Made by a program: the position numbers and the translations under genes. The notes under the pieces are model-generated. The model ran no database searches. It was not told where the DNA came from and saw only the letters and a list, made by a program, of their open reading frames with translations. From the IMG/VR virus record IMGVR_UViG_3300048861_000143, positions 25,078 to 89,077 of that record: a stretch of DNA of 64,000 nt; one strand, given 5' to 3'. Position 1 is the stretch's first letter. Each line of letters starts with the position of its first letter. Shown here in pieces: positions 12,728-29,151 of the stretch. The stretch is from a virus.

Positions 12728-13021
12728 TCAGGCCTCCACCCCGAAAGCGCCGCGGATGTGGCAGTCCCGACCGGTCACCGTCTGCACGTGCAGATCGATG
12801 GTGTACTGGGTGCCGGCAACGCCGCCCGAGACCCATACGACCGCGACCGGACTGGCGAGCACGACAGTTTCAACGGTCGCGCTGCTGGGGGAGATCGTCG
12901 CTGTCGGAGTGCCCAGGACCGCATCGCTGTCACCGAGCCAAGCCGCTAGATCGAAGCCGAACCCATCCTTGTCGGCGGCGCGCTTGTTGTCGAAGACGTA
13001 GACGGGGAGCGCCTTGGACAC
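12728..13021 (-). CDS. Fibre-adaptor-like small beta protein
   Basis: 97 aa; KR.ADKDGFGFDLAAWL...VVWVSGGVAGTQYTIDLHVQTVTGR aligns by eye with the C-terminal domain of 16735-19776. Confidence 0.6.
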   Translation of the reverse strand: MSKALPVYVFDNKRAADKDGFGFDLAAWLGDSDAVLGTPTATISPSSATVETVVLASPVAVVWVSGGVAGTQYTIDLHVQTVTGRDCHIRGAFGVEA

Positions 13022-16734: not shown

Positions 16735-19700
16735 CTAGAAACCCGACACGAGTGCGATGTAGCCGCTGTTGAGCGCCTGAGAGAAATCAGCGCCTGGAGG
16801 CCAGAAAAGGGATGGGCCATAGTCGGTGGATGGCGACGCCGCGGCGGTCTGGCCGGTTGCGCTGCTGACCTCGATCCCCACTAGCCATTCGAAGGTTCGC
16901 CCGCCCGTGGTGCTGGCATCCAGCTTCACCGTGTAGCTGCGCCCGGGAACTCCCCCAGACAGCCACGCGACTACACGAGTGCCGTTCAGCGCCACCGAGA
17001 CAGGCTGAAGTTCGCCGCTTCCCGACGGCGCGATAGAGATCGAGAGATTTGAAATATCATCGCCTGCATCGATGAGTGGCGCTGAGATTTCGAGCTCGTA
17101 GTCGAGAACCTCCGTTGGCCGCTTCTTAGGCCACCACGCTACGGTCGCGGCCAGCGGCGATGCTTGGGCCGGTACCGTTATGAGCCGGGACATCGTCAAT
17201 GCCAGATCACTCCCATCAGGCGGCAAGCAACTCAGGTCGTGAGCGAGGCTGCGTGTGGATCTTTGGGCGGGAAGCCCAACAACGACGAACCGTGCCGGCG
17301 GCACGGTCATGGCTGTTCGGCTGAGAGGTTGAACCTGCACTAGCCGCGCCAGAGGCACTGACAGAGCTGTTCGGCGGAGATGGCCAACCTGCACTTCCCG
17401 CAAAAGCGGAGCGACAAGTACCTGTTGGGTAGCGGTGGCTCCGAACTGACCAAGGCTGGCCTCAGCCGCGATCGCGTTCGAGGGCTGCTGAACCGACAGG
17501 CCGGCGCCGATCACGACCTTGCCGGCGGCGGCTACGCCCTGATTTGATTGGCGGACGCTGAGCGCGAGCCCGGAGAAGACCTTCCCCAGGACTGACGGAG
17601 CGTTGCCGTCCTGAGAGACCGAGATGTGGCCGCCAATCAGGACTTCGGCGGTGGCAGAGGACGCATTGTCCTGCTGGACCGCCGTCAGACGGGCTTCTGA
17701 TATTGGGCCGCCGGCAGCCGAGAGCGCCTGGGCGTCCTGGCTGATTGCGAGGGGGCCGAAGTCGGTCGAGTAATCGGCGGCGAAGGGTCTGGCGGTAACC
17801 CGCCCCTCGATCGCGGAGGCCGCTGAGGCGGATAGGGTCTGACCGGCCTGCTGAGCCGCACCGTTTCCGGCGACGATCGGCTGTCCGGATGCCGACAGAG
17901 ACTGCTGGGGTTGAGCGAGAGCTCCGGAGCCGGAGACTAGGCCGCCCGCACTCCCCTGCACCCCCTGGGACGCCTGACTGGCCGCCAAGGCGACCGAGAT
18001 GGGCGCCGAGCCTGCGGCGGAAAGTGTGTTCGGCCCCTGAGTGGTCGCCAGCGACAGGGCCATGATGGGCCCGGCCGATGCCGCTACTTGCTGCGGCTCC
18101 TGTTGGGTAGCGAGACTGCCGCGGACCCCGAGAACGCCGGATCCGGCGAAGGTGTGGTCGGCCTGGCTCTGGATGAGCCTGGCGCCGGCCACGATGCTTA
18201 CGCCCAGCGCGTTCCGCTGATCGTCCTGGGTGGCGCTGAGCCCCCCAGAGGCAACCACCGACCCAGTGCCCGCCAAGACCTGGGGGCCCTGCGTCGCGGC
18301 CAGCGGCGCTTGCCATCTCGAGATGGCAGAGGCCGAGAGCGCCTGATCAACCTGTATGAACCCGGAGGGGCCGAAGTCGGTCGAATAATCAGGTGAGAAA
18401 GGGGTCCCGGACGCTACCAGGACGGTAGCGTGCGCTGCCAGCTGAGACGCCTGCCCGGCCGCCAGCGCACCGCCCAGGACGACCCCGCCTGTAGCGTTGA
18501 CGGTCTGCGCGTCCTGCACGATGGCAGCGGAGCCTCGCAGACCCACGGCGGACGAGGTGGCCGCAGTATTCGGGGCCTGAGAGACAGAAACCGCGCCCCT
18601 GACCCGGACAGAAACTGCCGTCGATGCAGCGTTGTCGGACTGGAGCGCCGCGAGATGCCCGACCGAGGTTACGCCCCCCGCCGCCGATAGTACCTGATCG
18701 AACTGGACGATGACCGCCGAGGCCGCCCACCCTGCGACAGCCGACGCAGACACTGAGTTGTCAGGCTGGAGCGACGCCAGCGTCGCGTTCCAACTCGCGA
18801 CGGCTGCGGCCGATAGCACCTGATCAGACTGGCTGAGTGCCGAGGCTGAGGGGCCAAAGTCGGTCGAGTAATCGGAGGAGAAGGGGCTGGCGGTGACGCG
18901 CCCCTCGATCGAGAGAGTAGCAGTCGCCGTTAGGGTTTGGTTGGCCTGAGCGGCCGTGACATGCACGCCCGTCGAGGAAATCCCGGCCGCCGTTAGGGCC
19001 TGATCGGCCTGAGCTGCGGTGACATGCCCACTGACCGTGGAACGTGCGGCAGCCGCTAGGGTTTGGCTGGCCTGAGATGCAGTGACGGTGCCTACTGCAA
19101 GCCCCGAACCACCGGTCGCGGATATGGTCTGCCCGGCTTGAGCGACGGCGACGGACCCGCGCACCACGGAACCGGCGGCCGAGGACAGGGTCTGGCCCTG
19201 CTGAGCTGCGGTGAGAGGCCCGCTCACCGTGGAGCTTGCGGCAGCCGCCAGGGTCTGTCCCGCCTGAGTGGCTGCGAGGACGCCCCGCGCTACGGGGCCG
19301 GCAGCGGCCGCTACGGTTTGGCCCGGCTGAGTGGCCGCGAGGACGCCCCGCGCTAGGGTGACGGCAGCGGCCGCTACGGTTTGGCCGGCTTGATTGGTGG
19401 TTACGCTCCCTCGTACCGAAGAAGTGGCGGAGGCGGTTAGGGTCTGGCCCTCCTGGGCGGCAGCGATGCCTCCGCGCACCGCGGGACCGGCAGCAGCCGC
19501 CAGGGTCTGGCCCGGCTGAGTGGCCGCGAGGCCCGCGCGCGACACGGGGCCGGCAGCGGCCGCTACGGTCTGGCCCGGCTGAGTGGCCGTGACGCTCCCT
19601 GAGATCCTAGAAACAGCAGCGGCCGCTACGGTTTGGCCGGCTTGATTGGTGGCTACGCTCCCTCGTACCGAAGAACTGGCGGAGGCGGTTAGGGTCTGGC

Positions 19701-19776
19701 CGGCCTGCGACACAGCCACAGCTGCGGTGACAGCAGCCGACGCGCTCTCGATGGACAGGCCATAGGCATAGATCAT
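16735..19776 (-). CDS. 1013-aa Ala/Ser/Gln repeat fibre/scaffold with PFxxDYSTDFGP motifs and C-terminal adaptor domain
   Basis: Dozens of ~15-aa xTQxGQTLxAxA repeats; three PFxxDYSTDFGP copies; ends in an adaptor-like domain and DFSQALNSGYIALV. Confidence 0.75.
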   Translation of the reverse strand: MIYAYGLSIESASAAVTAAVAVSQAGQTLTASASSSVRGSVATNQAGQTVAAAAVSRISGSVTATQPGQTVAAAAGPVSRAGLAATQPGQTLAAAAGPAVRGGIAAAQEGQTLTASATSSVRGSVTTNQAGQTVAAAAVTLARGVLAATQPGQTVAAAAGPVARGVLAATQAGQTLAAAASSTVSGPLTAAQQGQTLSSAAGSVVRGSVAVAQAGQTISATGGSGLAVGTVTASQASQTLAAAARSTVSGHVTAAQADQALTAAGISSTGVHVTAAQANQTLTATATLSIEGRVTASPFSSDYSTDFGPSASALSQSDQVLSAAAVASWNATLASLQPDNSVSASAVAGWAASAVIVQFDQVLSAAGGVTSVGHLAALQSDNAASTAVSVRVRGAVSVSQAPNTAATSSAVGLRGSAAIVQDAQTVNATGGVVLGGALAAGQASQLAAHATVLVASGTPFSPDYSTDFGPSGFIQVDQALSASAISRWQAPLAATQGPQVLAGTGSVVASGGLSATQDDQRNALGVSIVAGARLIQSQADHTFAGSGVLGVRGSLATQQEPQQVAASAGPIMALSLATTQGPNTLSAAGSAPISVALAASQASQGVQGSAGGLVSGSGALAQPQQSLSASGQPIVAGNGAAQQAGQTLSASAASAIEGRVTARPFAADYSTDFGPLAISQDAQALSAAGGPISEARLTAVQQDNASSATAEVLIGGHISVSQDGNAPSVLGKVFSGLALSVRQSNQGVAAAGKVVIGAGLSVQQPSNAIAAEASLGQFGATATQQVLVAPLLREVQVGHLRRTALSVPLARLVQVQPLSRTAMTVPPARFVVVGLPAQRSTRSLAHDLSCLPPDGSDLALTMSRLITVPAQASPLAATVAWWPKKRPTEVLDYELEISAPLIDAGDDISNLSISIAPSGSGELQPVSVALNGTRVVAWLSGGVPGRSYTVKLDASTTGGRTFEWLVGIEVSSATGQTAAASPSTDYGPSLFWPPGADFSQALNSGYIALVSGF
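19364..19701. repeat. Near-identical ~85-bp duplication, 252 bp apart, inside the repeat protein
   Basis: 19364-19449 vs 19616-19701 (GCAGCGGCCGCTACGGTTTGGCCGGCTTGATTGGTGG...) differ at about 2 positions. Confidence 0.85.
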
Positions 19777-19792: not shown

Positions 19793-20122
19793 CTACATCC
19801 GCAGCAGTTTCCAATCGAAGCTTCTGGCGACACCGGAAATCTGCTTGAGCGTCACCCTGATGCTCTGATCGCTCGGCTGCGGGGGCGATGCGATCACGAG
19901 CGTCGGTGGCAGCGCGGGGCCGACCGAGGTCTTCCAGGTCACCTCAAGCGTGCCGGCGGCGAGCGTCATCGTGTAGATCCGCAGCTCGAGCACATCGCCT
20001 AGGGCGAGGTTGTTGCAGCGGACTTGGAAATAGTAGGTCGCGTTGGTGGTGTCGGTGGCGAGGGTGAACTCAGTCCCGATCGTCGCGGTCTGGCTGCCTG
20101 ATGCGCTAACGGACCATGTCAC
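19793..20122 (-). CDS. Hypothetical structural protein
   Basis: 109 aa, beta-rich, coupled to its neighbours. Confidence 0.6.
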   Translation of the reverse strand: MTWSVSASGSQTATIGTEFTLATDTTNATYYFQVRCNNLALGDVLELRIYTMTLAAGTLEVTWKTSVGPALPPTLVIASPPQPSDQSIRVTLKQISGVARSFDWKLLRM

Positions 20123-20970
20123 ATTCTGACTCCGTAAAACGTAGCGCCGAGGATGCGATCGGGCGAGGTATTGGTCGCGGACTGAGCGCGTACCGCAATG
20201 CGGGTCCCAGCCCTGATCGGCATCGGGATGTAGGGCGTGATCATCGGCAGGGTTTGAACGGTGCCGCCGTAGAAGTCGCCCTGCGTGTAGAAATTGGGCA
20301 GGACCACCTTCTCGGATCCGCCCGCGCCCGCGCCTATGTCGACGAGGAAGTCGATGGCGCCAGTCGTGCCGTCCGTGCGATTTTGGCAGTCGAAGGCCAC
20401 GAAGAACCCGGCGATATCAGCCGTGAGCGAGGCCGCTAGTTGCGTCCACGCGCCCTTGGTGTTCGCCGTTGCGCCCGGATCAAACGCCGTTCCGACGTTC
20501 GTCGCGGAGATGAACCCGTAGGTGTCCACCATAGACGGTGCACCAGCCATGCCCCCGCGATCGTCGAAGATCGTGACCCTGCACCTATCGCCCCACCACG
20601 CCATATCAGACGATTGCCTGACAGACACGCGCGACCCAGCCCTGATGGCTAGGGGGATCATCAGCGACACGCCGTATCCGTTGCTGCCGTGGATCAGAAG
20701 GTTCTGCACCACGGCAACCTCGCTTCCGCTAGGTCCGACGCCGATGTCGAAGGCATAGGACATGCCACCGCTGCTGCTCCCGCCCCCCTTCCGCAAATCG
20801 ACCATGACCCAGGAAGAGTCGCAGCCAGTCGCAGACACCACCTCCGTCCACGGGCCCTTGGTAAAGGCCGTATCTGAGGGTGCGATCCCGACAGTGCCGG
20901 ATGAGGCGAGGAGTGAACCAAGGTCTTGCGACTGGCCAATCTGCGGTCCGAAATTCCAGCCGCCGGCCAT
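20119..20970 (-). CDS. Hypothetical protein of two tandem homologous domains
   Basis: TKGPWTEVV/TKGAWTQLA; FDIGVGPSGSE/VDIGAGAGGSE; IPLAIRAGSRVSVR/IPMPIRAGTRIAVR. Confidence 0.7.
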   Translation of the reverse strand: MAGGWNFGPQIGQSQDLGSLLASSGTVGIAPSDTAFTKGPWTEVVSATGCDSSWVMVDLRKGGGSSSGGMSYAFDIGVGPSGSEVAVVQNLLIHGSNGYGVSLMIPLAIRAGSRVSVRQSSDMAWWGDRCRVTIFDDRGGMAGAPSMVDTYGFISATNVGTAFDPGATANTKGAWTQLAASLTADIAGFFVAFDCQNRTDGTTGAIDFLVDIGAGAGGSEKVVLPNFYTQGDFYGGTVQTLPMITPYIPMPIRAGTRIAVRAQSATNTSPDRILGATFYGVRM

Positions 20971-22588: not shown

Positions 22589-22977
22589 CAGGCCCATACG
22601 CCGAGCACCGCGGCACTCTCGTCTGGATCGCTCGGGACGAGGCCGTATGTCGTCGGATCGAAGGTGAGATCCGAGGGGGACACCGTCGCGCGAATGTGGA
22701 TGTACCAGCTGTCGGGATCGCCGCAGGCTGGCACAGTCACGGACTGCTGGGTCATGTCGTCGGTGTAGGTGAACGCTGCCCTGCCCTTTCGTCCGGCAAA
22801 AGCGGCTTCTGGGTCGCCGCGGTCCACGACATTGCCTGTCGCGTCCCGCGCATCGCCCAGCATGTTCTCCGGCAGCCCAGTCGCGCTCAGGATACCGACC
22901 GTGCGCAGCTCCTGCATCGCGCCAAGCGCTTTGGTCAAGTCGGTGAACTTGAAACGGTAGTCGAAGTAATCGCTCAT
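22588..22977 (-). CDS. Hypothetical protein, possible fibre chaperone
   Basis: 129 aa; ATGA-coupled to the end of the head fibre gene. Confidence 0.55.
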   Translation of the reverse strand: MSDYFDYRFKFTDLTKALGAMQELRTVGILSATGLPENMLGDARDATGNVVDRGDPEAAFAGRKGRAAFTYTDDMTQQSVTVPACGDPDSWYIHIRATVSPSDLTFDPTTYGLVPSDPDESAAVLGVWA

Positions 22978-25900
22978 GTCGTTACCTGCTGAAGTTCGGT
23001 ATTGGAGAGAGCACGAGGCCAGTAGCGCAGGCGGCTCAGATAGCCGTTTTCAAGGCTGGTGTTGACCGAGTTCTGTCCGAGACGAAGCGTAGTCAATGAA
23101 GTGGGAAGCGTGCCGCTGATCGCGCCGACCGCGCCACCATTGAACGCGGCAGAAATTGCACTAGCGGCCGCGACCATGCCAGCCTTGAAGGGCACTCCTG
23201 GTGTGAAATTACCGGCAGGTGCCGAAGAGGTAGGCGTGCCTGCGGCGGATGCGGCGGCATTCAATACAGTCGTGCCTTGGTTCCGCAAGATGATGCGGTT
23301 CGCAGTAGTTCCGTCATCCAAAAGCGCAAGACCCCCGAGAAGTGCGCCGGGAAGTGATTGCGGGATCATCGCTGAAACAACAACACTACTGGCGCTCTGG
23401 TTGAACCATGAGCCGAGCGGCATCGCGGCTAGTTCCCCGCTCCGAGTCGCTACGCCGGGCGATCCGGCGGGCGGAAGAATAACAGAAGTTGCAAACGCAC
23501 CTTGTTCAAGCTGCGGAGCACCGATGCGCAGTGTGATATCGACCGGAACGCCCGAGGTCACACCATAGGACATCCATGGCATGACGAAGGCTACATTGGC
23601 TGCGGCAGATGCCAGGGACACGGTATAGCGCTGTGTGGCCAATGGAGCATTGGTCGGCGTTAGCGCCACGCTCACGTCACCGCCGATGGCGACCAGCCCC
23701 GAGTCATACTGACGGATGCGCGAAATGACGTTGTTAAAGCCGGCCAGTGATCCGGCCATAAGGCGGAGATATACAGAATGCGTCCACGCCTGTGATGCTG
23801 CTGATGCGATCGCTCCCGCCTGCTCGAACAGATACACGGCAAAGCCAGTGTTCGTGATGGTCGGAGTTCCCCATATTCGCACGTCGATGTAGGGGATTCC
23901 GGACTCACTACCCGTTCCCAAAATCGAGGCAGACAGTCCGCTCGATACGACGTTCGTCCCGCCCCAATTCGTCGGAGCCGTTCCGGGCGTCCCCGCGACC
24001 GCGCCTTCGCCCCTGGGATTTCGGATCGAGTTTGTTCTCTGCTCTTCGACTAGGAGACCCCGCGCAGCGAGGGTCGCCGGATCGTAGTCGAAGCGCGGCT
24101 GGTTCGCGACAGCTGATTGCAGCGTGCCTGTTCTGTCGAAGTAACTCGCGCCGGACGCCCGTGTGAACGCGATGCGGGGATCGAGCGGCGAGGAGGTCAG
24201 ATCTAGGTCGAGGGTCGTGTCCTGGGCATTGAGGCTCGTCACGATCGGAAGCTCGGTCGCGGAGAGCGCGCGCGGCCAGCAGCGCACGCGGCGCATGTGG
24301 CCGCCGATCTCGGCCCCGGTTCCCCAAGGCGCGCCGCCGATCGACAGCCGCGAAATCCACGGATAGGGGCCGTCGTTCATCGACGCCGAGGTAGCTGCGG
24401 AGCCGTTGCCGGAAGCCCGCATGGTCCCGGAGCCATAGGAAGCCGCCTGCCTATTCAGCACGTCCCCGAGGACGACCGCCCCTGTGTTCACCCCAGCGCT
24501 GGCGTTCTCGCCGATGGCAGCCAAGCCATTACCGACAAAATACAGCGAGTTTCCGAATGTGCCATCCGACATCCCAATTGGAACGGAGCTGCTGGGGGTC
24601 CGGGTGGTGCCGAAATCCGCGCAGAACGCGCCCTCCGCCGGGTTGAACCAGGAGCCCGCAGAGGTCGGGACGTAAGCTTGATCCGCGGCCCGGGTGGCGA
24701 CGGCCGGCGTGCCGGCAGCCGGAAGGATGAGCGAGGTCGGGAATGCGCCGAGTTCAAGCTGGGGACCGCCGACCCGGATTGTGAAATCGGCTGCGGCCGA
24801 CGTATTGAACCGAAGCCCCAAAGCAACAAACGCCGTGCTCGCCGGCGCAGTGGCAGTAATCGCTACGCGCGCCAGCGTGCTTGATGGCGTGAATATCGTC
24901 CACGTCTGCGCCAGGAATGTCTGGGACGCATCATAGAACCGGAGGGTGAGTTCGATATCGGTGAGGTTGGCGATCGAGCCGGCGGCCAGCTTTGCGTAAA
25001 TCGAACCGCTCCAGACCTGCGTAGCCGAGGCTGCGACCGCATTAACGGCCTCGAAAAGAAAAGTTGCCGCAGACATAACGGAGGCAGACGCGAACCGCAC
25101 GTCGGCGCATGTCATGCCCTGCTCAGTAGCGGTCGCAATACTAGTTTGAGCGGTGCCTTGCCCCCAGTTCGTCGGGGACGTCCCGGGCGAACCGGCAACC
25201 GCGCCTTCCGCTCGCGGATTGCGGATGGCATTGGTCCGCTGTTCCTCGATCAGGAGTCCGAGCGCGGTCGCGCCGAGTGTGACGACCGATCCAGAGGTCG
25301 GGATAAAGGGCGTTGCTTCAAAGCCTCGCTCTAGCTGCGGGGAACCGACGCGGAAAGTTGCGTTGATGACAGCACCGGACGTTACTCCGAACCTGTAACC
25401 AACGCTCACCGTAGTCGCCCCGGCATTGGGCGTGTAGGTCATCGAGAAGCGCTGCGTATCAAGGGCGGCGGTTGTCGGGGCTAGGGCGCTTCCATTGGCC
25501 GCGCCTGCGGCATTGTCATCAAAGCGAAGAGACGGGGTAACATTGAGCGTGCCCGAGATCAAACGCGCATAGGAGGAAAGGGTCAAAACCGAGTTGCCGG
25601 CATAGGGCGCTACCGTATCGAACCTCACATAAAGGCCGAAGGTGTTAGTCGCTGTTCCGGCGATGTTGACCTCAATATAAGGGATACCATTCTCAATGCC
25701 AAAGCCCGTCTGAGTCATGGTGACACCGAAGCCGGCAGTCCCCATTGCAGGGCTGGCCGCCCAGTTCGTGGGCAGTGTTCCGGCGCCGACGCCCTGCAAT
25801 GTCGAGTTACGTATCCAGTTCGTCCGCCCAGCCGGCGTCGGCCCGTAGTCGATCCGCGGCGCGTTGTTCGCTGCGGTCTTGAGGGTGCCCGTCGCGTCGA

Positions 25901-27860
25901 AGTATGTCCCGCCGCTCGCCCTCGAGAAAGTGATGCTCGGATCGAGAGCGGGTTGCGTCAGGTCGAAGTCTAGCGCAACGTCCGACACGTTCGGGTTGGT
26001 GACGAGCGAAAGCTCGGTAGCGGATAGAGCTCGGGGCCAGTAGCGGATGCGGCGGACGTAGCCATTCATAGGCGACCCTGTGTTGTTGCCAACACGCAGG
26101 GTCGTTACACCCGCAAGCAGCCCTTGAGAGTTGGCGCCCGAGACTACCGCGCCGCCATTTAGGCACACGGCAACAGTCGCAGCCTGGAACACCGCTCCCA
26201 TCTTGATCGTGGAGTTTACGGTTGCGGCGCCTGTGGTAGCAGATCCGCCAACAGTGCCGTTTACCTGCGGGAATGCCGCAACCGTGCCAACTGCTTGGTT
26301 GATGTATTGGACGTAACGGCTCGAGGCGACCCCATTGTCAACCTGATACGCCACCTGATTTGCGCCCGGCAGGATGCCCTCGAAGGAACCTTCCCAGGTA
26401 AACGAAGCGGGCACCCCCTGGATGAACCACGGCGTCGCCGCAGTGCTCGCCATCTCCGCCGCCCGCGTGCTGGCCGCCGGAGCGCCGGCCGTTGGCAGGA
26501 TCAGCGAGGTTGCGAACGCGCCAAGCTCGAGCTGCGGGGCGCCGATACGGAGGGTGAAATCGACCGTAACGCCCGACGCATAGCTGAAATAGATGTAGCT
26601 GAAGGCATAGGCGGTTGCTGCATTGTTGAATGTGCGCGTCGCCACAACACGCTGCGTCGCCAGGGGCGCTGCGGTTGGAACGAACGGAACATCAGTGGCT
26701 ATAAGCCCATTGCCGGAAACGTCCCGCTCGAATATCCGGAGCAGCGGATTGATGTTGGCGGCGCTGCCTCCGACCACCCTCACATATGCCGATCCGGTCC
26801 ATATCTGGCCGGAGACAGCCGGCACCTGGGTATTCCCCTCAAAGGTGCATATCGTAATGCCGAGCGTGCCCGTCGTGGTGCCGCTATAGCGGAAGTCCAC
26901 ATAAGGCACGCCGCTCTCGGTTCCGGTCCCGACAATCTGGCGAGACAGTCCATCGCCGTTCGAGTTGCCGGTGTAAAAGGTCGGCAGGGTTCCCGGCGAT
27001 CCGGCTACCGCGCCCTCCATGCGGGGATTGCGGATCTGGTTCGTCCGCTGCTCCTCGATCAGGAGCCCGAGCGGACTCGCTGCAACCGTGGCGATGGAGC
27101 CGGAGGTTGGGATAAAGGCCGTTGCCTGATAGCCGCGCTCAAGCTGAGGCTGCGAGATCCGAAGGGTGAAATCAACGACGGCCCCGGAAGCGCAGCCCCA
27201 GCGGAATATCGGCTGAACGTATGCGGCGCTCGCGGCGGTTGTCGTCGCGGTCGTCACGAACTGAGTATCCACGCCGGTTGGCGAGATCACCACGGAATGG
27301 CTTGCAACCAGCGCGACGGAGGCCGAGCGCTCGGCTATATCCTGGGATAGCGTCCCGGACAGGACGCCCGCAACTACCTGGACATTGACGCCAAGTGTCC
27401 AGGCTTGGCCCTGCGCGCCCGGGATGACATTGCCCTGCTCCGGCGAGAGGAAGGCTGTGGAGTTCCCAATAGTGGCGCTGGCCGTCCCGCTGAGGCGTAT
27501 GTCGAAATACGATCGCCCCTGCGCCGTGGTGCCGGTGCCGACGACGGTATAGCCGATGCCAGATCCCGGGGAGAATGCGGCCCAATTGGTCGGGACAACG
27601 CCGGCCCCGCCGCCCTGCATCGTCGAGTTCCGGACCCAGTTCGTCCGGTTGCTCGGCGCCGGACCGTAGTCGATCCGCGGCACGTTGTTCGCTGCGATCT
27701 GCAGGGTGCCGGTCGCATCGAAATAGCTCGCGCCGCTTGCGCGGGTGAACGCGATGCGCGGATCCACCGTCCCGCTGAGGAAGTCCAGCGTCAGAGACTG
27801 ACGCGACTGCCACGAGGTTAGTATGCCTGCGGACCTATGCGCCGCCAGCGAAGGCATCAT
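22974..27860 (-). CDS. Head spike fibre-type protein, three repeated modules (~1628 aa)
   Basis: 3x LD..DPRI.F.RASG.SYFD.TGTL..A.N.PR.DY, 5x RTN.IRN domains, 3x R.RYWPRALS.TEL (LamG-like); start moved to MMPSL. Confidence 0.8.
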   Translation of the reverse strand: MMPSLAAHRSAGILTSWQSRQSLTLDFLSGTVDPRIAFTRASGASYFDATGTLQIAANNVPRIDYGPAPSNRTNWVRNSTMQGGGAGVVPTNWAAFSPGSGIGYTVVGTGTTAQGRSYFDIRLSGTASATIGNSTAFLSPEQGNVIPGAQGQAWTLGVNVQVVAGVLSGTLSQDIAERSASVALVASHSVVISPTGVDTQFVTTATTTAASAAYVQPIFRWGCASGAVVDFTLRISQPQLERGYQATAFIPTSGSIATVAASPLGLLIEEQRTNQIRNPRMEGAVAGSPGTLPTFYTGNSNGDGLSRQIVGTGTESGVPYVDFRYSGTTTGTLGITICTFEGNTQVPAVSGQIWTGSAYVRVVGGSAANINPLLRIFERDVSGNGLIATDVPFVPTAAPLATQRVVATRTFNNAATAYAFSYIYFSYASGVTVDFTLRIGAPQLELGAFATSLILPTAGAPAASTRAAEMASTAATPWFIQGVPASFTWEGSFEGILPGANQVAYQVDNGVASSRYVQYINQAVGTVAAFPQVNGTVGGSATTGAATVNSTIKMGAVFQAATVAVCLNGGAVVSGANSQGLLAGVTTLRVGNNTGSPMNGYVRRIRYWPRALSATELSLVTNPNVSDVALDFDLTQPALDPSITFSRASGGTYFDATGTLKTAANNAPRIDYGPTPAGRTNWIRNSTLQGVGAGTLPTNWAASPAMGTAGFGVTMTQTGFGIENGIPYIEVNIAGTATNTFGLYVRFDTVAPYAGNSVLTLSSYARLISGTLNVTPSLRFDDNAAGAANGSALAPTTAALDTQRFSMTYTPNAGATTVSVGYRFGVTSGAVINATFRVGSPQLERGFEATPFIPTSGSVVTLGATALGLLIEEQRTNAIRNPRAEGAVAGSPGTSPTNWGQGTAQTSIATATEQGMTCADVRFASASVMSAATFLFEAVNAVAASATQVWSGSIYAKLAAGSIANLTDIELTLRFYDASQTFLAQTWTIFTPSSTLARVAITATAPASTAFVALGLRFNTSAAADFTIRVGGPQLELGAFPTSLILPAAGTPAVATRAADQAYVPTSAGSWFNPAEGAFCADFGTTRTPSSSVPIGMSDGTFGNSLYFVGNGLAAIGENASAGVNTGAVVLGDVLNRQAASYGSGTMRASGNGSAATSASMNDGPYPWISRLSIGGAPWGTGAEIGGHMRRVRCWPRALSATELPIVTSLNAQDTTLDLDLTSSPLDPRIAFTRASGASYFDRTGTLQSAVANQPRFDYDPATLAARGLLVEEQRTNSIRNPRGEGAVAGTPGTAPTNWGGTNVVSSGLSASILGTGSESGIPYIDVRIWGTPTITNTGFAVYLFEQAGAIASAASQAWTHSVYLRLMAGSLAGFNNVISRIRQYDSGLVAIGGDVSVALTPTNAPLATQRYTVSLASAAANVAFVMPWMSYGVTSGVPVDITLRIGAPQLEQGAFATSVILPPAGSPGVATRSGELAAMPLGSWFNQSASSVVVSAMIPQSLPGALLGGLALLDDGTTANRIILRNQGTTVLNAAASAAGTPTSSAPAGNFTPGVPFKAGMVAAASAISAAFNGGAVGAISGTLPTSLTTLRLGQNSVNTSLENGYLSRLRYWPRALSNTELQQVTT

Positions 27861-28273
27861 GTCAGGTCGCCCGATACAATCCACTCATCGACGGCGCGCT
27901 GCCTCAGCGACACCGACGAATATTGAGCGCGGGTCGTCAGAGTGGCCGACGGAGTCCGAAGCGTAACGCCCGCTGCGGGTACGATCGTCACTTGGCCTGC
28001 ACCGTATTGGCAGACCTCAAGCACAGTCCCCACATCGAACGGGACGCTGGAGTTCTGTGGAACTGTGACCGTGACAGCGGTCGCCGAGTTCATGTCGACC
28101 GCGCACACCCGATCTGTCAGGCCCAGCGTGTAATTTGCGGTCTGGGTGTTGATCTGAAGAAGCGCCGTGCTCAGAACCAGGTTCCGCATAGTCTGCGGAG
28201 TGATCGAACCAGCAGGCTGGCCATCAGCGAAAGAGGCCAACAGCGCCGCGATCGGCTTTGCCGAGTCTGCCAT
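27857..28273 (-). CDS. Short fibre-tip domain protein
   Basis: 138 aa; TANYTLGLTD...VPFDVGTVLEVCQYGAGQVTI...RAQYSSVSL...WIVSGDL, a domain usually found at fibre C-termini. Confidence 0.65.
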   Translation of the reverse strand: MADSAKPIAALLASFADGQPAGSITPQTMRNLVLSTALLQINTQTANYTLGLTDRVCAVDMNSATAVTVTVPQNSSVPFDVGTVLEVCQYGAGQVTIVPAAGVTLRTPSATLTTRAQYSSVSLRQRAVDEWIVSGDLT

Positions 28274-28303
28274 GTGAAATGTCCGGTCTTGGGCTGGAGT
28301 GAG

Positions 28304-28393
28304 TTAGGGCCCGAAGTCAGGGCTATAATCAGCAGTGAATGGGTTCGGTCTGGCGGTGATGAACCGCCAGATGACAAGGCCTAGGCTTATCAT
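28304..28393 (-). CDS. 29-aa micro-ORF MISLGLVIWRFITARPNPFTADYSPDFGP
   Basis: ATG 9 nt after the spike-base stop; ends in the same motif repeated in the 1013-aa protein. Below the ORF-track cutoff. Confidence 0.7.
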   Translation of the reverse strand: MISLGLVIWRFITARPNPFTADYSPDFGP

Positions 28394-28402
28394 CGCGGCC
28401 GC

Positions 28403-28711
28403 CTACCACATCGCTACGATCGAAGTAGCGGTCGTGGCCGCCATCACCTTGACGGCCTGGACTGGCAAGATCATCCCGGCCCCAACACTGAAGGTCACGA
28501 GGTCGCCGCCCGACGTTGTCAGGACGAGATTGCCACTTCCGCCGACGTAGATGGCGCGGGTTGGCGGAGTCAGTGTCGTGGCGTCGCTGGGAACGACCGC
28601 TACGGCTCGGGTAGCCGGGCCGTCCGACGCCGAGGTGAGACCCGACGAGGGGTCAACCATGATCACCGGCAGCGCCGTCACATTGCCGCTCGGGGCGGGA
28701 AACTGGCTCAT
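28403..28711 (-). CDS. Head spike base protein (RcGTA Rcc01079-like)
   Basis: PATRAVAVVPSDATTL..PTRAIYVGGSGNLVL....G..VTF...AG.ILPVQA.KV.A.TTAT.IVAMW family pattern. Confidence 0.8.
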   Translation of the reverse strand: MSQFPAPSGNVTALPVIMVDPSSGLTSASDGPATRAVAVVPSDATTLTPPTRAIYVGGSGNLVLTTSGGDLVTFSVGAGMILPVQAVKVMAATTATSIVAMW

Positions 28712-29151
28712 CAGGGGCTCCAAGGGGAAGGCCGATCGAGGTGCGGCGATAGGCGCGCAAGCGCCTCAGCCTCCCGTCGCAAATCGACCTGGTATTTGTG
28801 CTCGAAAGTCTTCCAGCCGGTCTGGTGGCCCTCGCCGTGGTGCGCTGCGCAAACCGGTGCGGTCCACTCGTCACCCGGCTTGATCGCCGTCCCGCCACCG
28901 TTTCCGGCCCGCACGTGATGGGCATGGATGGGGGAGCCCGTGCAGCCGAGTACGGCGCACGGGAAAGAGCGGATCCAAGCCAGATGAGCAGGGCATCGGC
29001 CCTTACTCGGCTCTCTTTGAGGGCGTGGTGGGGGAGATAGGCGAACGGCGGCGCGGTCAGCCTTGTACTGCGCCTGGCATCGTCGGCAGCGCTTGCCTAT
29101 GCCGAATATGGCTTGGCCGCACCCACAGGCGCGGCTGGAGGGTGGCGGCAT
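28711..29151 (-). CDS. DUF968/Ref-like Zn-binding nuclease
   Basis: HLAWIRSFPCAVLGC...HAHHVR.G..GG...KPGDEWTAPVCAAHHGEGH. Confidence 0.75.
   Translation of the reverse strand: MPPPSSRACGCGQAIFGIGKRCRRCQAQYKADRAAVRLSPPPRPQREPSKGRCPAHLAWIRSFPCAVLGCTGSPIHAHHVRAGNGGGTAIKPGDEWTAPVCAAHHGEGHQTGWKTFEHKYQVDLRREAEALARLSPHLDRPSPWSP

Follow-up and report, generated by a model that had tools for sequence, protein, structure and literature searches.

How is the fibre of a head spike held on the capsid when its anchor is encoded by a separate, very small gene? In gene transfer agents and phages, it is the head spikes that make the first contact with capsular polysaccharide, and to our knowledge the mechanism by which their fibres are exchanged between phages is not understood. 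The question is raised by DNA of an uncultured soil virus, IMG/VR record IMGVR_UViG_3300048861_000143, of which positions 25,078 to 89,077 were analysed. This whole stretch of 64,000 nucleotides (nt), referred to as the window, is part of a 149.8-kb viral contig. In it, a homologue of the head-spike base protein Rcc01079 is followed by a 29-codon open reading frame (ORF), named the micro-ORF here, and then by a gene for a protein of 138 amino acids (aa) and a fibre gene. The TAG stop of the base gene and ATG 28393 of the micro-ORF are 9 nt apart, and the 138-aa ORF starts 30 nt after the micro-ORF TAA. An earlier description of the stretch, the initial annotation, had given this layout (the 9-nt gap, the 29-aa ORF with its sequence, and the 138-aa protein) accurately in every detail. 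The base and the micro-ORF with its two parts are placed in the window as follows.

28403..28711, minus strand: head-spike base, Rcc01079 homologue, 102 aa from ATG 28711 (PDB 6tb9, phrog_12296).
28304-28393, minus strand: micro-ORF of 29 codons, from ATG 28393 to a TAA stop.
28361..28393, minus strand: presumed plug, micro-ORF residues 1-11 (M-I-S-L-G-L-V-I-W-R-F), matching Rcc01080 residues 2-10.
28304..28360, minus strand: motif unit, micro-ORF residues 12-29 and TAA, one (I/V)TARP..PFxxDYSxDFGP copy.

First, the spike base claimed in the initial annotation was borne out. The protein matches PDB 6tb9, 'Head spike base Rcc01079', at an expectation value (E) of 1.5e-10 over residues 33-102 (phmmer), phrog_12296 at E 1.9e-17, and PDB 8cjz, 'Spike Base Protein', at E 0.02; no mention of PDB 8CJZ was found in the literature searched. 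Its closest homologues are 57% identical in IMG/VR and 62% identical in a set of 5.8 billion proteins, with none closer. Counted from TTG, the ORF spans 28403-28723, and TTG 28723 is an alternative start. The start is likely ATG 28711, which has GGAG 8 nt upstream and overlaps the preceding HNH gene by ATGA. In the gene transfer agent RcGTA, the head spike is composed of a pentamer of Rcc01079 (GhsA) and one Rcc01080 (GhsB) fibre (PDB 6TB9/6TBA/6TSU; PMC7296036, PMC10218006). Rcc01080 is ordered only at residues 2-10 (I-A-L-G-L-G-L-G-L), which form a five-point star in the base pentamer, and the Ile and Leu side chains of the star occupy hydrophobic pockets of the five Rcc01079 subunits (PMC7296036). 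Thus, the N-terminal anchoring of Rcc01080 had been stated correctly in the initial annotation. The present locus is like that of RcGTA in its homologous base, in adjoining the head genes, and in that the next gene opens with alternating Ile/Leu like Rcc01080 residues 2-10. However, the anchor in RcGTA is the N-terminus of a 325-aa fibre, whereas here it belongs to a 29-aa protein ending after a docking-type motif, and the fibre-family protein (1628 aa) sits two genes downstream without an anchor. The anchor is therefore not covalently continuous with a receptor-binding fibre body: TAA follows codon 29, and the fibre homologue is a separate gene.

The first eleven residues of the micro-ORF match the star. 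I2, L4, L6 and I8 are in register with the alternating Ile/Leu of Rcc01080 residues 2-10, and the star score is 4/5, the same as at most homologous base loci. When contig start codons followed by at least 12 open codons were counted, the pattern M-[ILVMF]-x-[ILVMF]-G-[ILVMF] was found at 16 of 9402 (0.17%), and its place 9 nt after the base gene is therefore not chance. Because of this position, the pattern and the solved homologous complex, the micro-ORF probably encodes a real plug peptide, free of any fibre, for a head spike of the RcGTA type.

Plugs encoded apart from the fibre are seen at other base loci as well. The comparison set consisted of 34 base-homologue loci (32 IMG/VR loci and 2 phage records), and in 25 of them an ORF starting within a few bases of the base stop has a plug-type N-terminus, such as MLSLGL.., MLLGLNLKL.., MGLGLGIGLGL.., MDGLSLSIP.. 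or MSFGIAF... The plug heads a long fibre (144-1531 aa) in ten loci and a separate small ORF (42-81 aa) in fifteen. The small ORFs fall into six unrelated families (67 aa in six loci; 81 aa; 68 aa; 42-45 aa in four loci; 51 aa in two loci; 42 aa), and in most of the fifteen loci a separate fibre gene comes 2-12 nt after the plug ORF. The exceptions are three loci of the 67-aa family, where an HNH gene follows the plug, and L023, where the plug and fibre ORFs share 10 nt. Two plug families are under purifying selection: nonsynonymous divergence (pN) is 0.00-0.13 against a synonymous divergence (pS) of 0.12-0.88 in the 67-aa family, and 0.08-0.17 against 0.19-0.36 in the 42-45-aa family, with pN/pS of roughly 0.3-0.6. 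The micro-ORF is assigned to the split fibres by its position and its plug, and selection is seen in the two other families. A direct example of such a split is the fused 466-aa fibre of L017, which in L023 appears as the same protein divided into a 68-aa plug and a 413-aa body. Split head-fibre anchors are a recurrent class, of which no description was found in the literature searched; within the same literature, the statement of the initial annotation that the present arrangement is undescribed also holds.

In three of the four loci of the 42-45-aa family (L016:5334-5480, L027:4068-4210, L029:1332-1470), no stop interrupts the fibre frame in the 83-90 codons before its ATG, a stretch that covers the small ORF completely. 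A -1 shift would fuse plug and fibre in this family, which could reflect programmed frameshifting or merely high GC.

The other end of the micro-ORF carries the motif P-F-x-x-D-Y-S-x-D-F-G-P, which has only four copies in the six-frame translation of the whole contig: one at the micro-ORF end, and the others at residues 298, 459 and 664 of a 1013-aa ORF 10 kb away. When the 18 C-terminal residues were searched against the contig by tblastn, the three copies in the 1013-aa protein, already pointed out in the initial annotation, were confirmed at E 5e-8, 4e-6 and 3e-5, and the similarity extends to the preceding (I/V)TARP. The DNA of the copies is only ~73% identical, and the conserved Ser is encoded by AGC in one copy and by TCG in the others; therefore, the motif is conserved as a peptide and is not a recent DNA copy. 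The micro-ORF ends exactly where the conserved unit ends. We take the C-terminal motif to be a meaningful repeated element and not noise. As a beta-strand, it would have F, S/A, Y, T and F on one face and Asp on the other, which would suit strand addition. The 1013-aa protein and its parts are listed below.

16735..19776, minus strand: Q-repeat shaft protein, 1013 aa, with motifs at 18850-18885, 18367-18402 and 17752-17787.
16888-17124, minus strand: Gp77 domain of the 1013-aa protein, residues 885-963 (PF23148, E 3.2e-16; 8jou_D, E 6.8e-8).
16801-16833, minus strand: Gp77 tail of the 1013-aa protein, PSTDYGPSLFW, with a predicted local distance difference test (pLDDT) of ~97.

The source annotation starts the shaft gene at an internal GTG (18966), which gives 743 aa and puts the first motif 29 residues from the N-terminus. 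The 1013-aa reading seems more likely because the Q-repeats run on through the upstream 270 codons. The N-terminus of this longer protein (M-I-Y-A-Y-G-L-S-I) has alternating hydrophobic residues and is reminiscent of a plug. The shaft homologues P0124 and P0125 have Q-repeats and LamG domains in common with it, and not the motif. The strict (DYS) form of the motif had 0 matches in the viral contig collection and 0 in the genome contig collection. A variant with F had 9 viral matches, of which 3 (L043, L044 and L047) are convincing. This F-variant is found at the extreme N-terminus of large spike-like proteins (L035, L043) and of a connector (L044), and in L047 it closes a baseplate protein whose gene lies just ahead of the fibre gene. 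The connector of L044 (3296-3688, plus strand) is a head-tail connector-like protein with the motif (NPFAKDFSIDFGP) at its extreme N-terminus, and its apparent GTG start shares bases with the stop of the 402-aa gene before it. The end of the 402-aa protein, ..SLGLASVTP, is read from the same DNA in another frame.

What could such a tail bind? In the initial annotation the partner of the motif was the 138-aa protein. This protein and the fibre encoded after it are described here.

27857..28273, minus strand: 138-aa mini-fibre or adaptor; AlphaFold2 (AF2) model with pLDDT 90.6; an ATGA overlap joins its stop to the probable start of the fibre gene at 27860.
22974..27860, minus strand: triple-module LamG fibre, 1628 aa (PF13385, phrog_5939), with no plug of its own.

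The model of the 138-aa protein has two short helices (8-12, 26-37) followed by a beta-sandwich. The model came closest in fold to the knob at the C-terminal end of the Pa223 capsid spike, a trimer (9ny6_C, E 6e-7, root-mean-square deviation 2.0 A, 101 columns), and weaker matches are the T4 gp9/gp10 and CBA120 TSP4 N-domains (Foldseek E 2e-3 to 2e-2, TM 0.4-0.5). The Pa223 spike gp52 is a triple beta-helix of 295 aa which binds the capsid three-fold axes directly (PDB 9NY6; bioRxiv 10.1101/2025.06.11.659172). The two have in common a short N-terminal attachment segment and a C-terminal knob of this fold, but the 138-aa protein lacks the helix body. With T4 gp9/gp10 and CBA120 TSP4 it shares an attachment-type beta-domain, and the place before a large receptor-binding protein to which it is translationally coupled; however, the similarity is only moderate, and the Pa223 knob matches better. 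Although a search of the viral contig collection gave no match, the family has more than 100 members of ~137 aa. In six contexts on other contigs (L035-L037, L119-L121) a gene of this family directly precedes a large receptor-binding or depolymerase gene, usually overlapping it, except that in L121 an HNH gene lies between the two. No base or plug was found before the gene in any of the six, and the motif and the family were found together in one of seven inspected contexts (L035). The prediction of a complex between the micro-ORF peptide and three copies of the 138-aa protein scored 0.02, a value that decides neither for nor against binding. Since this family normally precedes receptor-binding genes without base, plug or motif, the 138-aa protein was dropped as the partner of the motif. 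A tailspike of 824 aa in another phage starts with the same conserved N-segment (GQPxGSIxxQTxRN) as the 138-aa protein.

In the 1628-aa fibre, a complete LamG-type fibre unit is present three times in tandem, each copy starting LxLDF..(I/A)FTRASGxxYFDxTG and ending RYWPRALSxxEL. The fibre is 39% identical to the fibre body of L023 over 431 aa and also matches the fused head fibre of L017, and in these two loci single-unit versions serve as stand-alone head fibres. Because the fibre is homologous to those of L017 and L023 but plugless, a head-fibre family appears here unplugged, with the plug as a separate 29-aa product. The simplest reading of the 138-aa protein and the fibre is an imported two-gene module, in which the small protein anchors or adapts the large one. 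An import is supported by GC content at third codon positions (GC3), which falls from 0.80 in the base gene to 0.70 for the 138-aa protein and 0.71 for the fibre.

A different partner is pointed to by the Gp77 domain of the shaft protein. The 84-sequence AF2 model gives its tail a pLDDT of ~97, and the tail is therefore an ordered part of the domain. The family consensus after the last strand is PPSx(G/D)FGxPxxW. The dispersed copies of the motif read YSTDFGPS and the micro-ORF end reads YSPDFGP, so that S-x-D-F-G-P is common to them and the Gp77 tail; as far as these residues tell, the motif copies are the Gp77 tail (STD[FY]GP) without its Trp strand. Among 1.84 billion representatives searched, 702 are related to the domain, and the window has a second Gp77-type domain that stands alone.

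12728..13021, minus strand: stand-alone Gp77-type domain, 97 aa, candidate socket (PF23148, E 1.8e-13).

This 97-aa protein stops right after the last strand and has no tail; aligned to the family profile (hhalign, 97.7%), it ends 9 residues after the end of the alignment. A similar case is record G001, which is the record of L043 (locus L123, 378-3728, minus strand) and is 94% complete. It has a motif-headed 993-aa spike, starting M-A-G-P-F-T-T-D-F-S-S-D-F-G with the F-variant, and a PF23148 gene. The 119-aa PF23148 protein is encoded 10 nt after the spike and stops right after the last strand, tail-less. The two look like a natural 'peptide plus bare domain' pair. PF23148 was found in 0 of 24 other viral records (8 of these at least 90% complete, 4 with chance motif matches). 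In other words, a Gp77 domain is in the same protein or the next gene in 2 of 2 near-complete genomes with a genuine motif, versus 0 of 24 controls. We infer that the motif may be a trans-acting Gp77 tail which docks onto tail-less Gp77 domains. If the micro-ORF tail recruits at all, a tail-less Gp77-type adaptor would be a better candidate for its partner than the 138-aa protein.

There is a known system with which this proposal can be compared. PF23148 is the 'podophage GP4 fiber-tail adaptor', and gp77 of GP4 is grouped with collar proteins (PDB 8JOU; PMC13730344). In the podophages GP4, VP1 and A1002, serial sites of the rope or nozzle-rope proteins bind fibre dimers by beta-sheet augmentation (PMC13730344). 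Like these chain-like fibres, the present system has a long repetitive protein with spaced peptide copies and a Gp77 domain, a separate small Gp77-type protein, and short strands that would act as serial docking sites. However, those are podophages and the virus here is a myovirus, and no homologue of the fibre dimer was identified in it. In addition, the docking peptide resembles the Gp77 tail and not the fibre-dock domain of A1002, and one peptide copy is joined to the presumed plug of a head spike, an arrangement not described in those phages.

Other short tails have a similar distribution. The motif LNLEFLTQQY, which closes the plug protein of L023, is found again at the end of a 173-aa tail protein (L023:5200-5721) that precedes a tailspike and has an LLxExG-like tail. 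A tail similar to that of the 173-aa protein (..LTENGDELLTEDG..) closes the 42-aa plug protein of L018, and both proteins precede spikes with an N-terminal ISxLP..VQGGxTKK segment. Multi-domain representatives of the Gp77 family (P0127-P0132, P0155, P0179) end in conserved xLExGxGxWxLExGxGxWLWG-type tails. These tails and the similar LLxExG tails of the L023 173-aa protein and the L018 plug protein may be another portable docking peptide, and short terminal peptides appear to be reused on head-spike plugs and tail adaptors. This agrees in outline with the 'plug-and-socket' of the initial annotation, but with another socket than the one named there.

When its two ends are considered together, the 29-codon ORF may encode a linker peptide with two ends, free of the fibre, for a head spike of the RcGTA type, a reading to which we give slightly less than an even chance. 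Three steps are proposed. In the first, based on homology and position, residues 1-11 would lie as a star over the five hydrophobic pockets of the base pentamer, with one peptide per capsid vertex, like the Rcc01080 N-terminus in RcGTA. In the second, which is seen at the level of sequence, residues 12-29 are one copy of the unit that is found thrice in the shaft protein and whose core S-x-D-F/Y-G-P copies the Gp77 tail. In the third and weakest step, the exposed tail would dock in trans on a tail-less Gp77-type domain, most likely the 97-aa protein (12728-13021). In this way, the same adaptor and its fibre could be mounted on head vertices and on the shaft protein. As for the origin, the ancestor was probably a LamG head fibre with a plug, and the imported module of the 138-aa protein and fibre either replaced its body or came to separate body and plug. 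Of the free bifunctional linker proposed in the initial annotation, the plug-like N-terminus and the free small anchor are supported, with separate plug genes and two selected families elsewhere, and the 138-aa partner is not. Any recruiting role for the tail is tentative, and the Gp77 domain as its socket is doubtful. A wider view would be that portable terminal peptides (star plug, Gp77-type tail, LLxExG tails) wire the appendages, and that two of them are fused here into a 29-residue 'double plug' bridging the capsid-vertex socket and a collar-type adaptor domain, with the same fibre set on head vertices and along the 1013-aa neck or tail shaft. This view is unlikely to be correct as a whole; if true, no structural adaptor protein smaller than the double plug would be known from a virion.

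The proposal suggests that phages could hang head appendages through a tiny two-ended linker peptide. If a free anchor carries a second docking peptide, receptor-binding modules would be swappable with the capsid interface untouched. It would also follow that genes of fewer than 30 codons, skipped by annotation pipelines, are structural components of virions. The motif and the Gp77-type domain make a concrete candidate peptide-domain pair, which could explain cargo recruitment by 'rope' or 'chain' fibres and could serve as an engineering handle for phage display on capsid vertices.

Several observations weigh against the linker. Star position 10 is Arg and not Leu, with W9 and F11 adjacent. 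The codon score of the micro-ORF is 0.00, compared with 0.22 +/- 0.16 in in-frame gene windows and -0.09 +/- 0.16 in open off-frames; it is thus between coding and non-coding windows and slightly nearer to the latter. GC3 is 0.66 versus 0.79 for genes, the rare codons ATA, CTA and AGA are used, the Shine-Dalgarno match is weak, and the gene caller of the source annotation did not call the ORF. For the conservation of the 29-aa ORF, a check put forward in the initial annotation, no close relative was found in any collection searched: base homologues are at most 62% identical, and the strict motif has 0 matches in the viral and genome contig collections. A search of PDB with the peptide also gave no match. 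With regard to the tail, the F-variant has 70 matches in prokaryote genomes, nearly all by chance, the Trp strand conserved in the Gp77 tail is missing from the dispersed motif, and the link between motif and Gp77 rests on two genomes. Finally, the fall of GC3 from 0.80 to 0.70 at the junction of the base and 138-aa genes fits a recombination scar, and most features of the locus are shared by the reading in which the micro-ORF is a stump left by recombination, except the exact end at the motif and the conservation of the motif at the protein level.

This last explanation is a serious rival to the linker. In it, a former head-fibre gene with a plug would have lost its body when the module of the 138-aa gene and LamG fibre recombined in, and the micro-ORF would be what is left of the 5' end of that gene. 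The stump may still be translated and cap the base pentamer, giving a fibre-less spike, with C-terminal residues that recruit nothing. Indeed, the 138-aa and fibre pair is mobile, being found without base or plug in L035-L037 and L119-L121, and GC3 drops from 0.80 in the base gene to 0.66-0.71 in the three ORFs that come after it, including the micro-ORF. HNH genes flank such loci, the codon usage of the micro-ORF is not gene-like, and the N-terminal ~30 residues of the L017 fibre (plug, ~10 residues, NPF.., GP) resemble the whole micro-ORF. However, a stop placed exactly at the end of a unit that is conserved as protein, with another Ser codon family, is rare for a random truncation, and selection maintains free plug proteins in other lineages. 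We consider a leftover gene end rather unlikely.

It is much less probable that the 29 codons are not a gene at all but an untranslated intergenic stretch, with resemblances due to chance or decay. The missing call, the weak Shine-Dalgarno match and the intermediate codon score would all be expected from such a stretch. Yet it would have to place a pattern present at 0.17% of open starts 9 nt after the base gene, in the position of the plug ORFs in 25 of 34 loci, and to produce a motif match that reaches E 5e-8.

A detail absent from the initial annotation is that the base gene, the micro-ORF and the 138-aa ORF are in one frame, in the order TAG, three Ala codons, ATG...TAA, ten codons, ATG. 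Read-through of TAG and/or TAA would therefore give base-plug or plug-138-aa fusions and could set the 1:5 stoichiometry, and recoding is conceivable in view of the fibre frame that is open across the small ORF in three of the four 42-45-aa loci. However, aragorn found no tRNA and no suppressor in the contig, TAA is a strong terminator, and the chance of both ORFs being in frame is ~1/9. At other loci the start of the plug ORF and the base stop share bases in different frames (ATGA); in-frame placement is thus not conserved, and read-through is a very remote prospect. Just as improbable is a coupling ORF, whose translation would mainly deliver ribosomes to the 138-aa gene 30 nt downstream with the peptide itself irrelevant: ATG 28273 has no recognisable ribosome-binding site and the operon is tightly coupled elsewhere (ATGA at HNH/base and 138-aa/fibre), but the gap is long for termination-reinitiation, and the plug sequence and the conserved motif would be left unexplained.

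The genes discussed above belong to one late operon, which is on the minus strand throughout and holds the base, the micro-ORF, the 138-aa gene, the fibre and the 1013-aa gene. It starts with terminase, portal, protease, the major capsid protein (PF09950), two small head genes, a helix-turn-helix gene and an HNH/DUF968 gene. The base, the micro-ORF, the 138-aa gene, the 1628-aa fibre and six small structural genes form its middle, and the 1013-aa protein, two SGNH esterases, the 97-aa protein, sheath, tube and tape measure its end. From this gene content, the phage is a myovirus, with a large fibre-type gene block between the head and tail modules. In a blastn comparison with phages, the capsid gene was the only match. 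A search of sequencing runs with the stretch matched one run, its probable source, and no RNA run was listed.

28711..29151, minus strand: HNH/DUF968 nuclease gene (PF06147, E 3.8e-9).
20119-20970, minus strand: 283-aa protein with two similar halves, an internal duplication.

The HNH/DUF968 gene is coupled translationally to the base gene by the ATGA overlap and is a possible driver of cassette exchange at the spike locus. HNH genes are also directly 3' of the 67-aa plug gene in L007, L009 and L011, which are unrelated phages, and it is possible that HNH nucleases beside head-spike cassettes are homing elements promoting the exchange of spike modules. Near the shaft gene, a 109-aa protein encoded upstream was considered as a second base and ruled out, since BLASTP gave no alignment. 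A PDB search with a 127-aa neighbour protein was without a match. The 283-aa protein, whose gene adjoins the shaft gene, had neither a family match nor a PDB match. It has the repeat pattern ..KGxWTxxxxxxT..DIGxGxxGSExxV..IPxxIRAGxRxxVR.., which suggests a fused pseudo-dimer of jelly-roll-like domains.

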